Assembly: GCA_021158375.1 (NCBI GenBank)
Contig: JAGGUS010000174.1
Coordinates: forward strand, 1-27,618
DNA length: 27,618 bases
Reading direction: 5' to 3'
From: Thermoprotei archaeon
GTDB lineage: Archaea; Thermoproteota; Thermoprotei; QMSL01; B3-G16
Every line of letters starts with the position of its first letter. The stretch's first letter is position 1. The notes below the pieces were generated by a model. That model did not search any database, had not been told where the DNA came from, and saw nothing but the letters and a program-made list of their open reading frames with translations. The translations under genes were made by a program, and so were the position numbers. Shown piece after piece: positions 16,554 through 23,166 of the stretch.

Positions 16554-18050
16554 TTAAGAGAGGTGTATGTAGATTTTAGCTCGAGGATCCTCTTTCTCTA
16601 GCTTAAATGAGACTATTCTGTGGTATCCGTCCAGCCCTATAACATTCTTACCCTTCTTAATCCTATATTGTTCTTCCTCAGCTTGACAAGCAGGTAGTGA
16701 GAGGTCGTATTCATACACTTTTAGCATGTTTTCTTTGGTGGAGCTAATTATGAGTATGGGATTATCATAGCCCCAGAGTGGTATGCCTCCCCATGCTGAA
16801 GAGCCAATCATGCTCCCAGGTATTACAAAGCTTACAGGCGGAGGAGGAGAATAGAGGAGTGCCGAAGTGCTAACCACTAATATGTCTCTATGCCCCACAT
16901 CTATGGGGCTCGCATCTAAGGCCATGAGATTGGCTGTATCCGTTGTACCCAGAAGCACTTTATCTCCAACCTTCTCTATAGAGGTTACCCTAGCGCCTAA
17001 GGCACCAACTATCCGAGCCATAGGCGGCGTTATATAGACTAAAACTGTTGGGCCTACGGTAGTATTGAGGGTCTTAAGGAGTTCCTTCTCCCAAGGATTT
17101 CTCGCATGTACAATACCGTGTGTGAAGGAATTAAATGCTGTAAGAATTCCTCCGCCTAATGGTAGTGCAACGGTTCTTGTAGGGGAATAACCTGACTTAA
17201 CGAAATCAAAGAGCCTTATGAACCTAAGTGGCTCCACGCTAGGATCAACAGGATTTCCCACAAGCACACCTCCCTTTACGAACATAAAGAACCTAGCATA
17301 TGCCGAGCTTGCACAACCGGATAGTGGTTGTTCCGTACCATGTCCGTCCACACTTATTTTAGCATAATCGTCTATCAATCTCTTAGTCCATTTACCTGTC
17401 ACCATGTCCATACATTGAATACCTTCAACTCCCTTGCTCCAGTCTCTCATGATATCGAAACATACATAGTCTAGGTATGTGCTACCCTTTAGCCCTGGAT
17501 CCTCGCTCAGCTTTTCCTCCTTTCCGCTCTTCCTATCTAGAGCGTAAATCCCTAGGTGTTCGTGCCCATCAGCTCTAGCTATTATGAGCCTATCATCCAC
17601 GGGATTGTATACTATCTCCGAGACCTCACCTGCCCACTTCTCCTCATGCTCTATCGTATCCTTCCATAATAATTGTACTTCATCTTCGAGTATATCATAT
17701 ACATGTACATGGCTAAACTTGTTGTAAAAGAGAATAATTCCTCCATGATCTTTCCTTCCACCATAAATGGCAGGTGCATGAACCCATCCACCAAAATAAA
17801 TCTTGTCATCAACAACCTCGACTGCACTATACGTATCTCCACCTGATCTAGGACCAGGACCTTTGCCTACGTGTTCAAATCTGTAGACTTTCTCGCGATC
17901 ATCTCTGATGAAGTGGGCCTCGGCTTCGAATGCCAGTGTGAAGTAAAGCACTCCCTTATGGTATCTAAGCCCGAAGATTCCTCCTGAACCCCATTCTGGG
18001 CCATAGCGTGGAGGGAACCTGTATAATTTTTCGTATACGGACATATCCAT
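16554..18050 (-). CDS. Conserved archaeal protein, DUF2139-like
   Basis: Intact 498-aa ORF. The N-terminus FPPRYGPEWGSGGIFGLRYHKGVLYFTLAFEAEAHF is recalled as the DUF2139 signature; beta-rich. Confidence 0.65.
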   Translation of the reverse strand: MDMSVYEKLYRFPPRYGPEWGSGGIFGLRYHKGVLYFTLAFEAEAHFIRDDREKVYRFEHVGKGPGPRSGGDTYSAVEVVDDKIYFGGWVHAPAIYGGRKDHGGIILFYNKFSHVHVYDILEDEVQLLWKDTIEHEEKWAGEVSEIVYNPVDDRLIIARADGHEHLGIYALDRKSGKEEKLSEDPGLKGSTYLDYVCFDIMRDWSKGVEGIQCMDMVTGKWTKRLIDDYAKISVDGHGTEQPLSGCASSAYARFFMFVKGGVLVGNPVDPSVEPLRFIRLFDFVKSGYSPTRTVALPLGGGILTAFNSFTHGIVHARNPWEKELLKTLNTTVGPTVLVYITPPMARIVGALGARVTSIEKVGDKVLLGTTDTANLMALDASPIDVGHRDILVVSTSALLYSPPPPVSFVIPGSMIGSSAWGGIPLWGYDNPILIISSTKENMLKVYEYDLSLPACQAEEEQYRIKKGKNVIGLDGYHRIVSFKLEKEDPRAKIYIHLS

Positions 18051-18455
18051 CAGCAGAATTAAGGAAATTTACTGAGATTATAAAATTTTCTATTTATTAA
18101 ATCATAAAGTCAAACACTTTACACTCCATATCACATCTGAAAATCTCTACATAGGCATCTACCTCTTGCTCTTCATTTACATAGTGCTTTATCTTTATTG
18201 ATAGTATTGCCACTTCATGCACTTTGATTTCGATGAGTGAGATTACCTTGTTTTTAATGTTTCCTCTAGTAAGGGGAACCTTTACTTTGTTAAAACAGAC
18301 ATCTACTCCACTACATCTACGCACATTTCGATAACACTCTCATAGCTAAGGGATAAGGGATGATGAAGGCGAGTTAGCTTAGGATAAGTTCGATGTTATA
18401 AGGTATGCTGAAAAATGATCTGTTGCATATCACTTTAGGCTAAGGTATAGCTTGC

Positions 18456-18557
18456 CTAGCACTGTCTAGATGACCAAAGTACTCCCTTTGGTACATCGTC
18501 TGAGATTATAGCCATCAATTCTACCTCTCCTTGTTCATTGTAGAGTATAACATGACC
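18456..18557 (-). pseudogene. Remnant of a molybdopterin-oxidoreductase C-terminal domain
   Basis: GHVILYNEQGEVELMAIISDDVPKGVLWS resembles the V...N.RG.V...A.VS..V.PGVV motif; flanked by stops. Confidence 0.45.
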
Positions 18558-18712
18558 TTAACAAGTATTGATTTATGCACTACTACTAATCATTACGCTA
18601 ACGATAACTATAGCTAAGAAAACGAATCTCAAAGACATGTGTTAGTCTAGCTAAATATAAGAGGAGTGATTATATTTAAATGTGAGTGATACATCATCGG
18701 AGGACATCAATA

Positions 18713-19270
18713 ATGACTACCTACGTAACAATGATTCCTAGGAAGTTCATCCTTGAGTCCGGAGATACAGTTACGCTTAAGGCTATCGACGTAGAGGAGA
18801 AGTTAGTAAAAGATACGATTTTTAAACTTTGGGTTCCAGATGTCGAGGCTATTTGTAAATACCTTATTAAAAAGCAGGGTTTCGAACATGTTGCCTCCAC
18901 CATTCCAAAAGGCGAGAGGTACAGTTTAAGAAAGGCATTAAGTGATGTGTGGGAACTTCACCTAAGGCTTTACGATAATGGATTCATTGACGCCGAAGTC
19001 GAGGTTAGGAGAGAATATCTTGAACATCTCAATAAGAGGCTTAATGTAGTGTATGAGGCTTTTGAATTCTATAGGGGACTCTACGACAAGCTACACATAT
19101 TTTACGCGCCAGCAAGGGAATGGATTGTTAAAATTATAGATCACTTCCACGTCAAGCTACGCGAGCCAGATACTTTAACCCCCTGGAAGCCAATAGTCAT
19201 AGGCATCGTTGTAGCAGGCATACTCTCATATGCATTACTAAAACTTACAAGAGGGGGTAGAAGCCTTTAA
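18713..19270 (+). CDS. Uncharacterised protein with C-terminal TM helix; last codons supplied by the IS607 left end
   Basis: Intact ORF with GGAGG before ATG 18713 (track start 18686), WELHLRLY...DAEVEVRREYLEH, and TM IVIGIVVAGILSYALL. Confidence 0.75.
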   Translation: MTTYVTMIPRKFILESGDTVTLKAIDVEEKLVKDTIFKLWVPDVEAICKYLIKKQGFEHVASTIPKGERYSLRKALSDVWELHLRLYDNGFIDAEVEVRREYLEHLNKRLNVVYEAFEFYRGLYDKLHIFYAPAREWIVKIIDHFHVKLREPDTLTPWKPIVIGIVVAGILSYALLKLTRGGRSL

Positions 19271-19281
19271 ATATTTCAAAG

Positions 19282-19297
19282 TGTATCATACTGTATC
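19282..19297 (+). repeat. IS607 left-end TGTATC tandem motif
   Basis: TGTATC at 19282-19287 and 19292-19297 (10-bp period), just downstream of TATA TTTAAATA at 19266-19273. Confidence 0.6.
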
Positions 19298-19309
19298 GGA
19301 GAATAGCAG

Positions 19310-19948
19310 ATAACAGAAAGACTACTACCGCCAAGGGAGGCGTGTAGGCGTCTCGGGATTAGCTTCATTACTTTGAAGAGATGGATTTACTCAGGTAAGA
19401 TTCGTGCTGTTAGGACTCCTACTGGTAGATGGATGATACCAGAAAGCGAGATTGAAAGGATTATAAGCGGAAAAGAGGAAGCAAGGGAGGTAAGAGCAAT
19501 CATTTATGCTCGTGTCAGTTCTTCAGACCAAAAGGGAGACCTTGATAGACAGATAGAGCACCTGACACAGTATTGCTCAGCGAAAGGATATAGAGTAGTT
19601 GATGTTCTAAGTGACGTAGCCAGCGGGTTGAAGGCCAACCGTAGAGGTTTGATGAAGCTCTTCAACTACGTGGTAAATAAACAAGTAGACGTAGTAGTTA
19701 TCACATACAAGGATAGACTTACGAGATTTGGTTTTGAGTATTTAGAATACTTCTTCAAACAGTATGGTGTAAGGATAGAGGTTGTCTATGGTGAGGAGCC
19801 TAAAGATGCTTATCAAGAGTTAGTTGAAGATTTGTTAGCAATAGTTACCTCCTTCGCTGGTAAGTTATATGGTATGAGGAGTCATAAGAAAAAGAGGCTT
19901 GTTCAAGGCTTCAAGAAGCTTCTAGGAGAGGTTGAGAAGAATGGCTAG
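19310..19948 (+). CDS. tnpA: IS607 serine recombinase/transposase with N-terminal MerR-like HTH
   Basis: ITERLLPPREACRRLGISFITLKRWIYSGKI (HTH), catalytic IIYARVSS, DVASG, ITYKDRLTRFGF and SFAGKLYGMRS. There is no canonical start before TTG 19373; ATA 19310 follows TAG 19304. Confidence 0.9.
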   Translation: MTERLLPPREACRRLGISFITLKRWIYSGKIRAVRTPTGRWMIPESEIERIISGKEEAREVRAIIYARVSSSDQKGDLDRQIEHLTQYCSAKGYRVVDVLSDVASGLKANRRGLMKLFNYVVNKQVDVVVITYKDRLTRFGFEYLEYFFKQYGVRIEVVYGEEPKDAYQELVEDLLAIVTSFAGKLYGMRSHKKKRLVQGFKKLLGEVEKNG

Positions 19949-21239
19949 AGTAACAAGGACTGTTATAGTGAGGAGCGTAAAGTTACCAAGAAAGGTGTTT
20001 AGGCTTTTCGTCGAGCTTGAGGGGATGTACCGAAACATGGTTGAGCAACTAACTATGTATGCTGTTAGAAATAGGGCTAAGAGCTTCACTAGGCTTAAGG
20101 CTTTGAAGTATCGTGAAATGAGGAACTTATATCCTCAACTACCATCACACTATGTCTATACTGCTTGCCAAGACGCTAGTACTAGAGCCAAGAGCTTTCT
20201 CAAACTAAAGAAGCTGGGCTTAGCCGAAAGAGAATATCCCGAGATTAGGAGCGTTAGTATCTGGCTTGATGACCACCTATGGAAACCTAGTGGATTAATC
20301 TCCATTAGGATAGCAACTCATAAAGGATGGGTAACAGTAGAGTTCAAGCCTCATAAACAGTACTGGAGATACATTAACAGGGGATGGATGTTAGCGTCCG
20401 AAGCTAAAATTAAGCTTGATAAGAGGAATAGACAGTTCATAATCTATCTAACCTTCGTCAAAGAGGTTGAGGAGTATAAACCCAAAGGGTACTTAGCTGT
20501 TGATGTTAATGAGAACAACGTTACCATGTTAGTTGATGATATTGCTTACCTCTTTGAGACTAATACCGGGAAGCTGGTCTTGGGTTACTACTACCGTAAG
20601 AAGAGTATTCAGGAGAGGTACGATAAGCTCTATGGTAAGAAGTCAAGGATTAAACGAAAGATTATGAGAAGGCTTAAGGAGAGGATGAAGAAGCAAGACA
20701 TTAAGTGGAAGATAGCAAACCTAATCGTCAAGGTTGCTTACGAGAAACGAAATGCTATTGTTCTTGAGAAGTTGGGTAAGAAATCAGCCAACAATATGAT
20801 TAAGAGAATAAGGGATAGACAACTAAGGCACAGGATTTTCCAAGCATCATTCAGAGGTAACCAGAAAGCAATAGAGGAAAAAGCGAAAGAGTATGGTGTG
20901 CCAGTAATCTACGTTAATCCCAAGAACACTTCCAGGCTCTGTCCAGTACATAATGCTCCAATAATCTACAGTAGTGGGTCTAGAATGGGTAAGTGCAGTA
21001 AAGGTGGAGAAATATGGCACCGTGATGTAGTTGCATGCTGGAACCTCCTCCTCAAAGCCCTACGGGGTGATGGGGGCAATGCTCCAAGCCCCGTAGGGTC
21101 AGTCCTAGATGGGAGCCCCGTGCCGTTGGGCTCGACCGCCACCCATGACCCCATAGGAATATCCAAATCCCTATGGGCGAGGTGGAAGTCCCTACCGCAG
21201 ATACAATCTGATACAATTCTAAATAAAATGAGACGGTAG
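19941..21239 (+). CDS. tnpB: TnpB RNA-guided endonuclease
   Basis: RuvC-I YLAVDVNENN, RuvC-II AIVLEKL, AKEYGVPVIYVNPKNTSRLCPVH and RuvC-III WHRDVVACWNL; no frameshift. ATG 19941 overlaps the tnpA stop (track start TTG 19932). Confidence 0.92.
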   Translation: MARVTRTVIVRSVKLPRKVFRLFVELEGMYRNMVEQLTMYAVRNRAKSFTRLKALKYREMRNLYPQLPSHYVYTACQDASTRAKSFLKLKKLGLAEREYPEIRSVSIWLDDHLWKPSGLISIRIATHKGWVTVEFKPHKQYWRYINRGWMLASEAKIKLDKRNRQFIIYLTFVKEVEEYKPKGYLAVDVNENNVTMLVDDIAYLFETNTGKLVLGYYYRKKSIQERYDKLYGKKSRIKRKIMRRLKERMKKQDIKWKIANLIVKVAYEKRNAIVLEKLGKKSANNMIKRIRDRQLRHRIFQASFRGNQKAIEEKAKEYGVPVIYVNPKNTSRLCPVHNAPIIYSSGSRMGKCSKGGEIWHRDVVACWNLLLKALRGDGGNAPSPVGSVLDGSPVPLGSTATHDPIGISKSLWARWKSLPQIQSDTILNKMRR

Positions 21240-21266
21240 GGATAAACGGTGGGCAGTGAATCCACG
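21070..21266 (+). ncRNA. Predicted TnpB omegaRNA (scaffold to 21249 plus flanking guide)
   Basis: Stems: GGGGC/GCCCC (21073-77/21088-92), GAGCCC/GGGCTC (21113-18/21128-33), CCACC/GGTGG (21139-43/21181-85) enclosing CCCATAGG/CCTATGGG (21150-57/21170-77), and CCCTACCG/CGGTAGGG (21190-97/21234-41). The region overlaps the tnpB 3' end and the right end. Confidence 0.7.
21200..21215 (-). repeat. IS607 right-end TGTATC tandem motif (inverted relative to the left end)
   Basis: GATACA at 21200-21205 and 21210-21215 (10-bp period). Confidence 0.6.
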
Positions 21267-21645
21267 TATTAAAGTAGAGGAGTTAAAGAGGAGGTTCCGG
21301 GAAGCTCTAGAGTACATTAGTAAGGGAGACGCTGTACAAGCCGCTGAAAAGCTCTATAAAGTTGCTGAAAACAGCGTGAAAATACTATCTGAAATCAATA
21401 GACTACCAGAGTATGAAGTAGCTAGAAAACAGGGGACTTGGTGGACCAAGTTGCTAAACAGGGCAGCTAGAAGACTCAGGGATATTTATGGAGAAGAGAT
21501 AATAGATGCTTGGACCACCGCATACAAGTTCCATCAAATGGGGTTTCATGAAGAGCAACTTACTGCGGAGGAGATACTGAAAGAAGCGTATAAGGTAGAA
21601 GGTTTGATAAGAATAGTGGAGAGGGAAGTAGAGGAGAGAGGTTAA
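21256..21645 (+). CDS. PaREP1-family protein (HEPN-like fold)
   Basis: KGDAVQAAEKLYKVAENSVKILS, GTWWTKLLNRAARRL and AWTTAYKFHQMGFHE. Confidence 0.88.
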   Translation: MNPRIKVEELKRRFREALEYISKGDAVQAAEKLYKVAENSVKILSEINRLPEYEVARKQGTWWTKLLNRAARRLRDIYGEEIIDAWTTAYKFHQMGFHEEQLTAEEILKEAYKVEGLIRIVEREVEERG

Positions 21646-22423
21646 CATGATGAAAAGACTTCCTTCTTGGTTCTTTATTTTCTGAAAGGCAGAGAGGAAA
21701 GGGTATGCCATAAAAAGTAGCTCCATAGACATTTAAATTGCCGCCCATTAAGTGTGCCTCATACCATCTATGCATACCAGTCCATGGGAGGTGAGGATCC
21801 GCTAGGAGGATTACCGAACCATCCACAGTCCTAGATCTTCCTATAGCCCATTCATTACTTCCTTCAAGAGATGGTTCTACTCCAGATCCATTAAGCTCAT
21901 TCTCAGCCTCTCCTATACTTCTAGAAAGAACTATGTAGTATCCCCAGGCGATGATATCTTCTGGTCTTACTCTAAAATCTCGTATCCACTTAGGCAATTC
22001 ATCTTCATGCTCCTCTATATAGCGATTTATACCCCTAGCAAATGCACTAGCGAGCTTATAGACATGATCAGATATTTGATCCTTCCTATATTCATAAACG
22101 TGGTCAGGAATTTTAAGGGCCCTTATTTTATAGTCCATAGAAACATATTTCTCTCCAAGGAATTCTGATAGCCTACCAGTAGCTGTTAAATAGTCTATGA
22201 TCATATCTTCGAGGTGATCTTCTGCCTGAGCATAGCCAAAACCGTACATTACAGCTTCTTCGCTCTCCCCAACTACATGTGGTATACCATACTTGTCCCT
22301 ATAAATTATGACATCTTGTTCTCTCTTATTCATCATTATGAAGAATAGGGAAGAGCTAATTAAAAGCGTTATTAAAGCCATGATTATTGTTGTGCGAAAC
22401 TGCATGAAAATAAAGATCCACAT
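21560..22423 (-). pseudogene. Truncated penicillin acylase / Ntn-hydrolase (PvdQ-like)
   Basis: Signal anchor, IYRDKYGIPHV, GFGYAQAEDHL, nucleophile GSNEW, LADPHLPW and RWYEAHL. Similarity stops at about 21690 (YGIPF), so most of the beta subunit is missing. Confidence 0.8.
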
Positions 22424-22554
22424 AATGCTTAATAGCTTAACGGTAACGGATAGATCTCTTAGAATTAAGAATAAAGAGTATAGGGTTATAATTTCATTAT
22501 TTTTACTAGTAAAGTTTTATGTATTAATAGTATCCTTATCCTGCTAGGGAGATA

Positions 22555-22829
22555 ATGGAAGAAGTTGTTAAGATTATGCGTAATTTCAAGTAACTATTCC
22601 CGTTTCTATCAGAGCTAAGGTGGGGATTAATGAGGACGATGTTGTCAAGAGAGTGTATGATGAACGAGAGGAGGTTATTAAGATAATTTCATTAAGGAGG
22701 AAGAGAAGGACGATTAGAATCGGTAGGAAAATTAGTATTGAAGAAATTGAAGAAGCTATCGAGGGAATGATGGATGAAGCTATATTTTGGTCTATGATAC
22801 AATCGAGGATAGTGAATATCATGCCTTAG
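22555..22829 (+). pseudogene. vapB: AbrB-family antitoxin, frameshifted
   Basis: MEEVVKIMRNF, then a one-base loss (AATTTCAAGTAACT), then QVTIPVSIRAKVGINEDDVV...RKISIEEIEEAI. The native stop is lost. Confidence 0.75.
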
Positions 22830-23166
22830 CTATGAAGATTATTGACACAGTAAAAGAGTTATTCATACCATCCATCGTAGTTCATGAGTATACCTGGGTC
22901 ATGTTAAAATTAGTTCAAGCGACTCCTAGTTTCATCTTATTAAAAGTACGTGAATATCTTGAAGATCCGAGAACCACGTACATACTAGAGCCTACAAGAG
23001 CATTAGTTAACGCCTTAAAAATGCTTGAAAATATAAACAAGATGTAAAGGAAGTGAACGATTACATAATCCTTGCAGTGACCCTTCACTATAATCTAGTA
23101 TTAGCAACCTTCGATGAAAAGCTTAAGAGGATAGCTGTGAAGAGAGGATTAAGAGTAATTTCATAA
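22781..23166 (+). pseudogene. vapC: PIN toxin, N-terminally deleted and frameshifted
   Basis: Begins ILVYDTIEDSEYH without the first catalytic xxDTN strand; SIVVHEY; frameshift near 23045 into KEVNDYIILAV...ATFDEKLKRIA...RVIS*. Confidence 0.78.

Follow-up and report, generated by a model that had tools for sequence, protein, structure and literature searches.

An IS607-family element with a predicted RNA-guided TnpB nuclease, and its empty site, in a hyperthermophilic archaeon

In a contig of 27,618 nucleotides (nt) from a Thermoprotei archaeon (JAGGUS010000174.1 in assembly GCA_021158375.1; the whole stretch analyzed, here called the window), a serine-recombinase gene, tnpA, and a tnpB gene are interposed between an open reading frame (ORF) of 185 amino acids (aa) and a PaREP1 gene. 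The host is a hyperthermophilic Thermoprotei (Desulfurococcales-like) metagenome-assembled genome (MAG) from a hydrothermal vent. Can the insertion site of this element, the guide of its TnpB, and the target-adjacent motif (TAM) be read from the DNA? We found that the same locus is empty in related strains, and that the element, at 19258 to 21249, integrated by GG-core recombination, without duplication, between GGGGG and T at the stop/start overlap of the two genes. It is probably an IS607-family insertion sequence in which tnpA codes for a serine recombinase and tnpB for an RNA-guided nuclease that uses the guide and TAM mechanism set out below.

Logan contigs from four hydrothermal-vent or sediment metagenome runs were placed on window positions 17500 to 23000. 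In two runs from different studies, X3 and X6, a joint led from 19255 to 21248, skipping 1992 bases with 3 ambiguous letters (GGT). The joint contig of X3 was 655 nt long; its left 333 nt had 8 differences from the window (97.6% identity), and its right 322 nt had 1 (99.7%). The joint contig of X6 was 206 nt long, with just 25 nt on one side. The empty allele reads ..AGA GGG GGT GGG CAG TGA.., identical to the junction that an original prediction, made from the sequence of the window, had obtained for the empty site. That prediction had named related genomes or reads as the place to find this allele, and it was recovered from the metagenome contigs; sets of 60 and 120 related genomes, searched as DNA, yielded no orthologous flank and hence no empty site from a reference genome. 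Because contigs of a further run, X1, cross both occupied junctions, the insertion is not an assembly artefact. It is extremely improbable that the junction match is itself due to chance or assembly, the empty contigs being chimeric or derived from a paralogous locus. The runs are represented by contigs rather than reads, the X6 joint is short on one side, and a paralogous module is present on contig C160. However, the C160 paralog differs at 3 of the 20 positions of the predicted guide and has a different upstream sequence, the two arms of the X3 contig are long and match closely, the skipped length is that of the element as defined independently from ~30 other copies, and the C-terminal pattern of the upstream protein (see below) agrees.

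The left junction reads ..ACAAGAGGGGG followed by TAGAAGCC, where five G (19253 to 19257) precede the T at 19258. At the right junction the sequence is ..GGGATAAACGG followed by TGGGCAGTGA, the final G of the element being at 21249; across 21244 to 21256 it is ..AAACGG and then TGGGCAG. GGT can be read at both the left and the right, as had been claimed for GG(T). GG was present at both junctions in all copies, and the occupied allele is longer than the empty one by exactly 1992 bp. Positions 19255 to 19257 are the GGG that is invariant at insertions and constitute the predicted TAM; within them, 19256 to 19257 are the GG crossover core. Because the empty allele retains five G, the three conserved G on the left are all part of the target rather than of the element. 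IS607 is known to use a GG target without target-site duplication (TSD) (PMC6188088).

The ends were compared, by BLAST, regular expressions, and nhmmer, with those of copies from related genomes and from a scan of a genome collection. Homology at the left end started directly behind GGG in 32 distinct junctions, and homology at the right end ceased at ..GGTAGGGAYAAACGG (21249) in ~25 copies, the flanks beyond being unrelated. The ends had thus been placed correctly by the original prediction: the boundaries were identical in the related copies, and differing ends were not seen. That the site is occupied in some strains and empty in others speaks for recent mobility and, together with many insertion sites in relatives, argues that the family is mobile; the tnpA of the window copy lacks a canonical start.

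The contigs of X3 and X6 held a second joint, in which a right-end-like ..AAACGG (21247) was joined to the interior of PaREP1 (21542) at AAATGGGG/TTTCATG. This joint, which is weak, with 28 nt on one side, suggests a related element ~290 bp downstream in other strains, behind GGGG.

The insertion altered the C terminus of the upstream protein from ..GGGQ to ..GGRSL before the stop codon. Homologs with ~70% identity have the C termini ..GGKQ, GGEQ, or GGRQ. In the empty allele the PaREP1 start overlaps the upstream stop codon (GTGA), and in an ortholog (L128, 74% identical) it does so by 4 nt (ATGA). These GG-x-Q ends and the ATGA overlap agree with the claim that the upstream gene originally ended in ..GGGQ with a GTGA overlap. 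The GGGGGTG that had been proposed as the ribosome-binding site is a candidate for one. A protein 98% identical to the upstream protein (P0272, which represents 12 member sequences) ends in GGRSL like that of the window, and by its sequence it reads as the protein of the occupied allele.

To what target motif do these insertions point? Among 32 independent insertions, positions -1 to -3 were G in 32/32; the counts at position -4 were 23 G, 4 A, 5 T, and 0 C, and positions farther out were unconserved. The background of the host genome is 38.7% GC, with 2.9 GGGG per kb. C was present at -3 in all right ends (CGG, ~25 copies) and never in the 32 target sites. The TAM predicted from these counts is likely 5'-(G)GGG. 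The original prediction had taken the G-rich left flank, AGGGGG, as the TAM. The flank is G-rich and its GGG is invariant, but the hexamer over-reads it and was rejected, since -5 and -6 were not conserved over the 32 insertions.

The guide, by analogy with the bacterial systems described below, should start at 21250, because the element ends at the same position in all related copies. That it would be taken from the right flank, as had been proposed, fits the loss of similarity among the ~25 copies directly past 21249. It had also been proposed that AAACGG at the occupied locus avoids self-cleavage, and CGG there versus GGG in the target would fit the published logic of IS607 TnpBs. The sole other near match to the guide in the MAG was at a paralogous gene junction (C160, minus strand, 5528), with 12/12 matches in the seed and 17/20 overall. 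CTAAG rather than GGG lies in front of it, so that under the predicted TAM rule, if correct, it should not be cleaved.

When RNAalifold was applied to 25 copies of the region that spans the 3' end of tnpB and the right end of the element, it gave a consensus of four stems and 44 pairs, 22 of which had compensatory changes. In this consensus 95.9% of the cells were paired versus 32 to 43% with slid partners, and among 300 column-shuffle controls the maximum was 88.7% paired and 16 compensatory pairs versus the 22 observed. The window scaffold folded as a single sequence gave z = -4.9. The stems lie at 21057 to 21099, 21113 to 21133, 21139 to 21185, and 21188 to 21243 and are followed by the tail AUAAACGG; the last stem has the tnpB stop codon in its 3' arm. 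A multi-stem scaffold had been claimed from the window alone, and covariation in the 25 copies backs it. For this omegaRNA, the structure is strongly supported, and the RNA itself is predicted. Mini elements in relatives put the 5' limit of the scaffold near 21054 to 21062. A search of 18500 to 22000 against Rfam in E-value mode found no omegaRNA-type family, the only match being a chance one to a long noncoding RNA. The CCGTT loop of stem 2 and the AACGG tail were invariant or nearly so in the 25 copies, the single C-to-T change retaining a G-U pair, and by analogy with ISXfa1 they may form a pseudoknot.

In two copies (G033 and G004; L011 and L026), the inner ~29 nt of stem 1 (21064 to 21092) were reverse-complemented, and the outer stem was kept. 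X3 likewise has an "opposite strands" joint at 21057/21098. The stem 1 hairpin is preserved, but not the sequence of its loop. In all four metagenome runs, summed contig depth over 20996 to 21179 exceeded the depth over the left flank by a factor of ~10 to 80; this central segment of the scaffold is common to many elements in the sampled communities.

TnpB is encoded by an intact ORF. The protein scored 70 bits against TIGR01766 (cutoff, 32) and 47.9 against the Pfam family Cas12f1-like_TNB (cutoff, 26.3). A shallow TnpB profile gave only weak matches to the PDB. A deeper profile was required, and one built from 34 relatives, most from an exhaustive search and three close ones from the family search described below, matched solved Cas12f/TnpB chains, including ISDra2 TnpB and ISFba1 TnpB, at E values of 1e-29 to 1e-20. 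In the profile alignments, D188 (VDVNE), E276 (VLEKL), and D362 (HRDVV) fall on the RuvC motifs of these chains, so the claim of an intact D-E-D triad stands. The AlphaFold2 model of TnpB had a mean predicted local distance difference test (pLDDT) score of 88.8 and a predicted template modeling (pTM) score of 0.81, and Foldseek matched it over its whole length to AsCas12f, ISFba1 TnpB, ISDra2 TnpB, and mimivirus Fanzor2 (8J1J, 8IAZ, 8H1J, and 9B0L). As modeled, TnpB has the TnpB/Cas12f fold. Its Zn ribbon (20940 to 21020, residues 334 to 360), a domain for which PF07282 was matched, has the form C334-x2-H337...C352-x7-H360 (CPxH...C-x7-H), and these Cys-His-Cys-His ligands are conserved across the family in place of CxxC...CxxC.

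In the mechanism that we propose, transcription through tnpB would yield the omegaRNA, in which the last ~195 nt of the element would form the four-stem scaffold ending in ..AAACGG, and read-through into the flank would supply the guide from 21250. The TnpB-omegaRNA complex would recognize GGG(G), pair the guide with the empty donor joint, and cut it. Repair of the cut from an occupied copy would re-copy the element, which would thereby be retained, and the occupied locus would be spared because CGG precedes the guide match there.

This mechanism is already known, and the element in the window is an archaeal hyperthermophile version of a bacterial one. TnpB of ISXfa1 (Xylella fastidiosa) cuts GGG targets and not CGG targets, and CGG flanks the guide in the occupied locus (bioRxiv 10.1101/2023.08.09.552727; PMC10711439). 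In ISXfa1, a pseudoknot of the guide-proximal bases with a stem loop is experimentally supported, and TnpA repeats lie in a scaffold stem-loop (PMC10711439). The window element resembles ISXfa1 in its serine-recombinase tnpA and tnpB, its insertion behind GGG, its right end with CGG beside the guide, and its pseudoknot and TnpA repeats inside a scaffold stem-loop, both of which are only predicted in the window element. ISXfa1 differs in being bacterial and mesophilic and in having a scaffold of ~144 nt versus ~195 nt; its activity has been shown, whereas that of the window TnpB is predicted. The Zn ribbon of the archaeal protein is of the CxxH...C..H type.

CboTnpB, from CboIStron of Clostridium botulinum, has the TAM TGGG and a scaffold that ends in UCGG, and scarless excision of CboIStron regenerates the TAM and target, with TnpB driving retention (bioRxiv 10.1101/2023.11.20.567912). 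CboIStron shares with the window element a GG core and a GGG-type target and, as predicted for the latter, a GGG-type TAM, a scaffold tail ..CGG, excision that restores the TAM and target, and retention through TnpB; it differs in being bacterial, in carrying a group I intron (the window element has none), and in preferring T rather than G at -4. ISFba1 and 22 other RAGATH-18-type IS607 TnpBs have a G-rich 5-nt TAM (AGGAG or GAGGG) beside the left end (PMC11061315; PDB 8IAZ). ISFba1 TnpB is likewise an IS607 TnpB with a G-rich motif by the left end, and its fold matches our model (Foldseek E = 8e-12), but it uses a different RNA family (the window has no Rfam match) and a strict 5-nt TAM versus the 3 to 4 conserved positions in the window family. 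SisTnpB1 of Sulfolobus islandicus (IS200/IS605), which is active at 37 to 85 C with the TAM TTTAA (bioRxiv 10.1101/2023.03.06.531077), was the sole characterized archaeal TnpB in the literature that we searched. It is a thermophile-derived archaeal protein like that of the window and a precedent for a heat-active archaeal TnpB; its element is of the IS605 type with a Y1 transposase, an A/T-rich TAM, other ends, and another transposition mechanism.

The conceptual gain is consequently small, as GG-core insertion, a GGG TAM, CGG self-avoidance, and a scaffold pseudoknot have all been published for ISXfa1, CboIStron, and ISFba1. What the locus offers is a clean natural example in which one can read both states of the site, empty and occupied, as well as the predicted guide and TAM of an archaeal IS607 TnpB, and the rules read there match those shown experimentally in bacteria. 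In practical terms, TnpB is a candidate nuclease of small size (432 aa) and presumed heat stability; its predicted TAM is short and rich in G, and its scaffold is defined well enough for testing.

Several points weigh against reading this element as an IS607 element with a guided nuclease. TnpB scored 83 bits against NCBIfam NF040570 (guided_TnpB), under the cutoff of 100; this score reflects a divergent subfamily and not a failed fold. A phmmer search of the PDB with the single TnpB gave no match at E <= 0.01, so that, in comparison with ISXfa1, the window protein alone matches no solved TnpB/Cas12f chain at this threshold; the family profile does. Covariation is absent for the candidate pseudoknot. 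The empty allele may represent a never-occupied strain and not an excision product, two origins that are indistinguishable. Guide use, the TAM, and cleavage are assigned to this locus by analogy. The final two points, the tnpA start codon and the origin of the conserved GGG, each bear on an alternative explanation.

The tnpA frame read from 19310 matched NCBIfam NF033518 (transpos_IS607) with 244 bits (cutoff, 110) over profile positions 2 to 187 and contains the Pfam domains HTH_17 and Resolvase. The match requires this frame, in which the codon at 19310 to 19312 is ATA; the aligned codon in ~25 other copies is ATG or, in a few of them, TTG or GTG. The first canonical start, TTG at 19373, would remove part of the helix-turn-helix (HTH). 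Production of full-length transposase by the window copy is therefore doubtful, and the copy may depend on transposase supplied in trans from another copy. The element had been described as complete: tnpB, the triad, the scaffold, and the ends are intact, but at the tnpA start position ATA stands in place of the start codon seen in other copies. This lost start codon and the single full copy in the MAG would also be expected of a decaying, nonautonomous relic, with TnpB and the omegaRNA perhaps no longer expressed or active. We consider a relic unlikely, however, given the intact tnpB ORF, triad, scaffold stems, and ends, the existence elsewhere of a TnpB with 94% identity and a fragment with 98%, the polymorphism at the site with the recent mobility to which it points, and the 12 member sequences that the occupied-allele protein represents.

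Choice by TnpA, or selection, might by itself account for the conserved GGG. If the serine recombinase simply prefers to insert there, the TAM of TnpB might be different or looser. TnpA of H. pylori IS607 alone inserts at (G)GG, and the authors of the ISXfa1 study note that its TnpA uses CGG too, which its TnpB does not, so the two specificities are separable. However, the TAM was the flank motif in every IS607 system tested (GGG in ISXfa1, TGGG in CboTnpB, and AG-rich in the ISFba1 type), and C was found at -3 in 0/32 sites, though insertion by TnpA only would permit CGG. On balance we think a mere TnpA preference distinctly improbable and retain the predicted GGG(G) TAM. The coordinates of the features are given in Table 1.

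TABLE 1 Features of the IS607-family element and its flanks, in window coordinates
Feature	Position	Strand	Remarks
Upstream gene, 185 aa	18713..19270	+	Hydrophobic tail, family-less
Target-site G run, GGGGG	19253..19257	+	Kept entire in empty allele
IS607-family element, 1992 bp	19258..21249	+	Without TSD, without terminal inverted repeats; X3/X6 joint and ends common to related copies
Left end; TGTATC as direct repeats at 19282 and 19292	19258..19309	+	Conserved in alignment of ~30 left ends
tnpA, serine recombinase with N-terminal HTH	19310..19948	+	NF033518
tnpB, 432 aa	19941..21239	+	Intact ORF; RuvC D188, E276, D362; Zn ribbon
Predicted omegaRNA scaffold, ~195 nt	21054..21249	+	Within tnpB 3' end and right end; RNAalifold, 25 copies
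Loop CCGTT of stem 2	21123..21127	+	Complementary to tail AACGG (21245-21249); candidate pseudoknot including GG core
Two GATACA repeats (21200, 21210)	21200..21215	+	AT-rich loop of terminal scaffold stem; inverted versus left-end repeats
Predicted guide/protospacer, TGGGCAGTGAATCCAC...	21250..21269	+	Covers PaREP1 start codon; analogy with ISXfa1, CboTnpB
PaREP1 gene	21256..21645	+	GTG start; Pfam PF05942, E = 2e-30

The TGTATC pair at the left end and the GATACA pair in the scaffold each have a spacing of 10 bp, and both are likely TnpA binding sites, as predicted from their sequence and arrangement. Short repeated motifs are known at IS607 ends (PMC6188088), which fits these repeats. One copy (G100) is without the GATACA loop and retains the stem. 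For the upstream ORF, the GTG start assigned mechanically at 18686 is probably premature; the homologs all begin at the ATG at 18713 (MTTYVT..).

How widely is this family distributed? A search with TnpB gave 1011 matches at E <= 1e-5. The family is large and conserved to a striking degree: identity is 75 to 85% for TnpBs from Vulcanisaeta souniana, Aeropyrum pernix, Hyperthermus, many Desulfurococcales MAGs, and other hyperthermophile lineages, in addition to the 94% identical TnpB and the 98% identical fragment mentioned above. Besides the full copy in the window, the MAG contains a fragment of 242 nt at the end of a contig (C125) and two sister-family scaffolds, but no other complete copy. 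No description of a TnpB from Aeropyrum, Vulcanisaeta, or Desulfurococcales was found in the literature that we searched. The family may well be an active homing system at 80 to 95 C, with a 3- to 4-nt GGG(G) TAM, a ~195-nt omegaRNA encoded wholly within the tnpB ORF, a dispensable transposase-site loop, and mini elements, although we hold this with less assurance than the reading of the window element itself. If true, this would be the first characterized archaeal IS607-type RNA-guided nuclease, and the natural empty/occupied polymorphism would let homing be tested in wild populations.

The two sister-family scaffold-like sequences in the MAG (C61:5055-5234, plus strand, and C5:3371-3508, minus strand) share the central stems but differ in the terminal hairpin, and their tail is ..GAGGAAACGG; neither has been assembled as part of a full element. 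Miniature derivatives were also observed in relatives (L048:1501-1730, minus strand; L043; L126; L044), in which the scaffold and right end follow directly on ~45 to 55 nt of left-end sequence. These are protein-less, guide-RNA-only elements, and a contig of X6 has a loose end at window position 21053.

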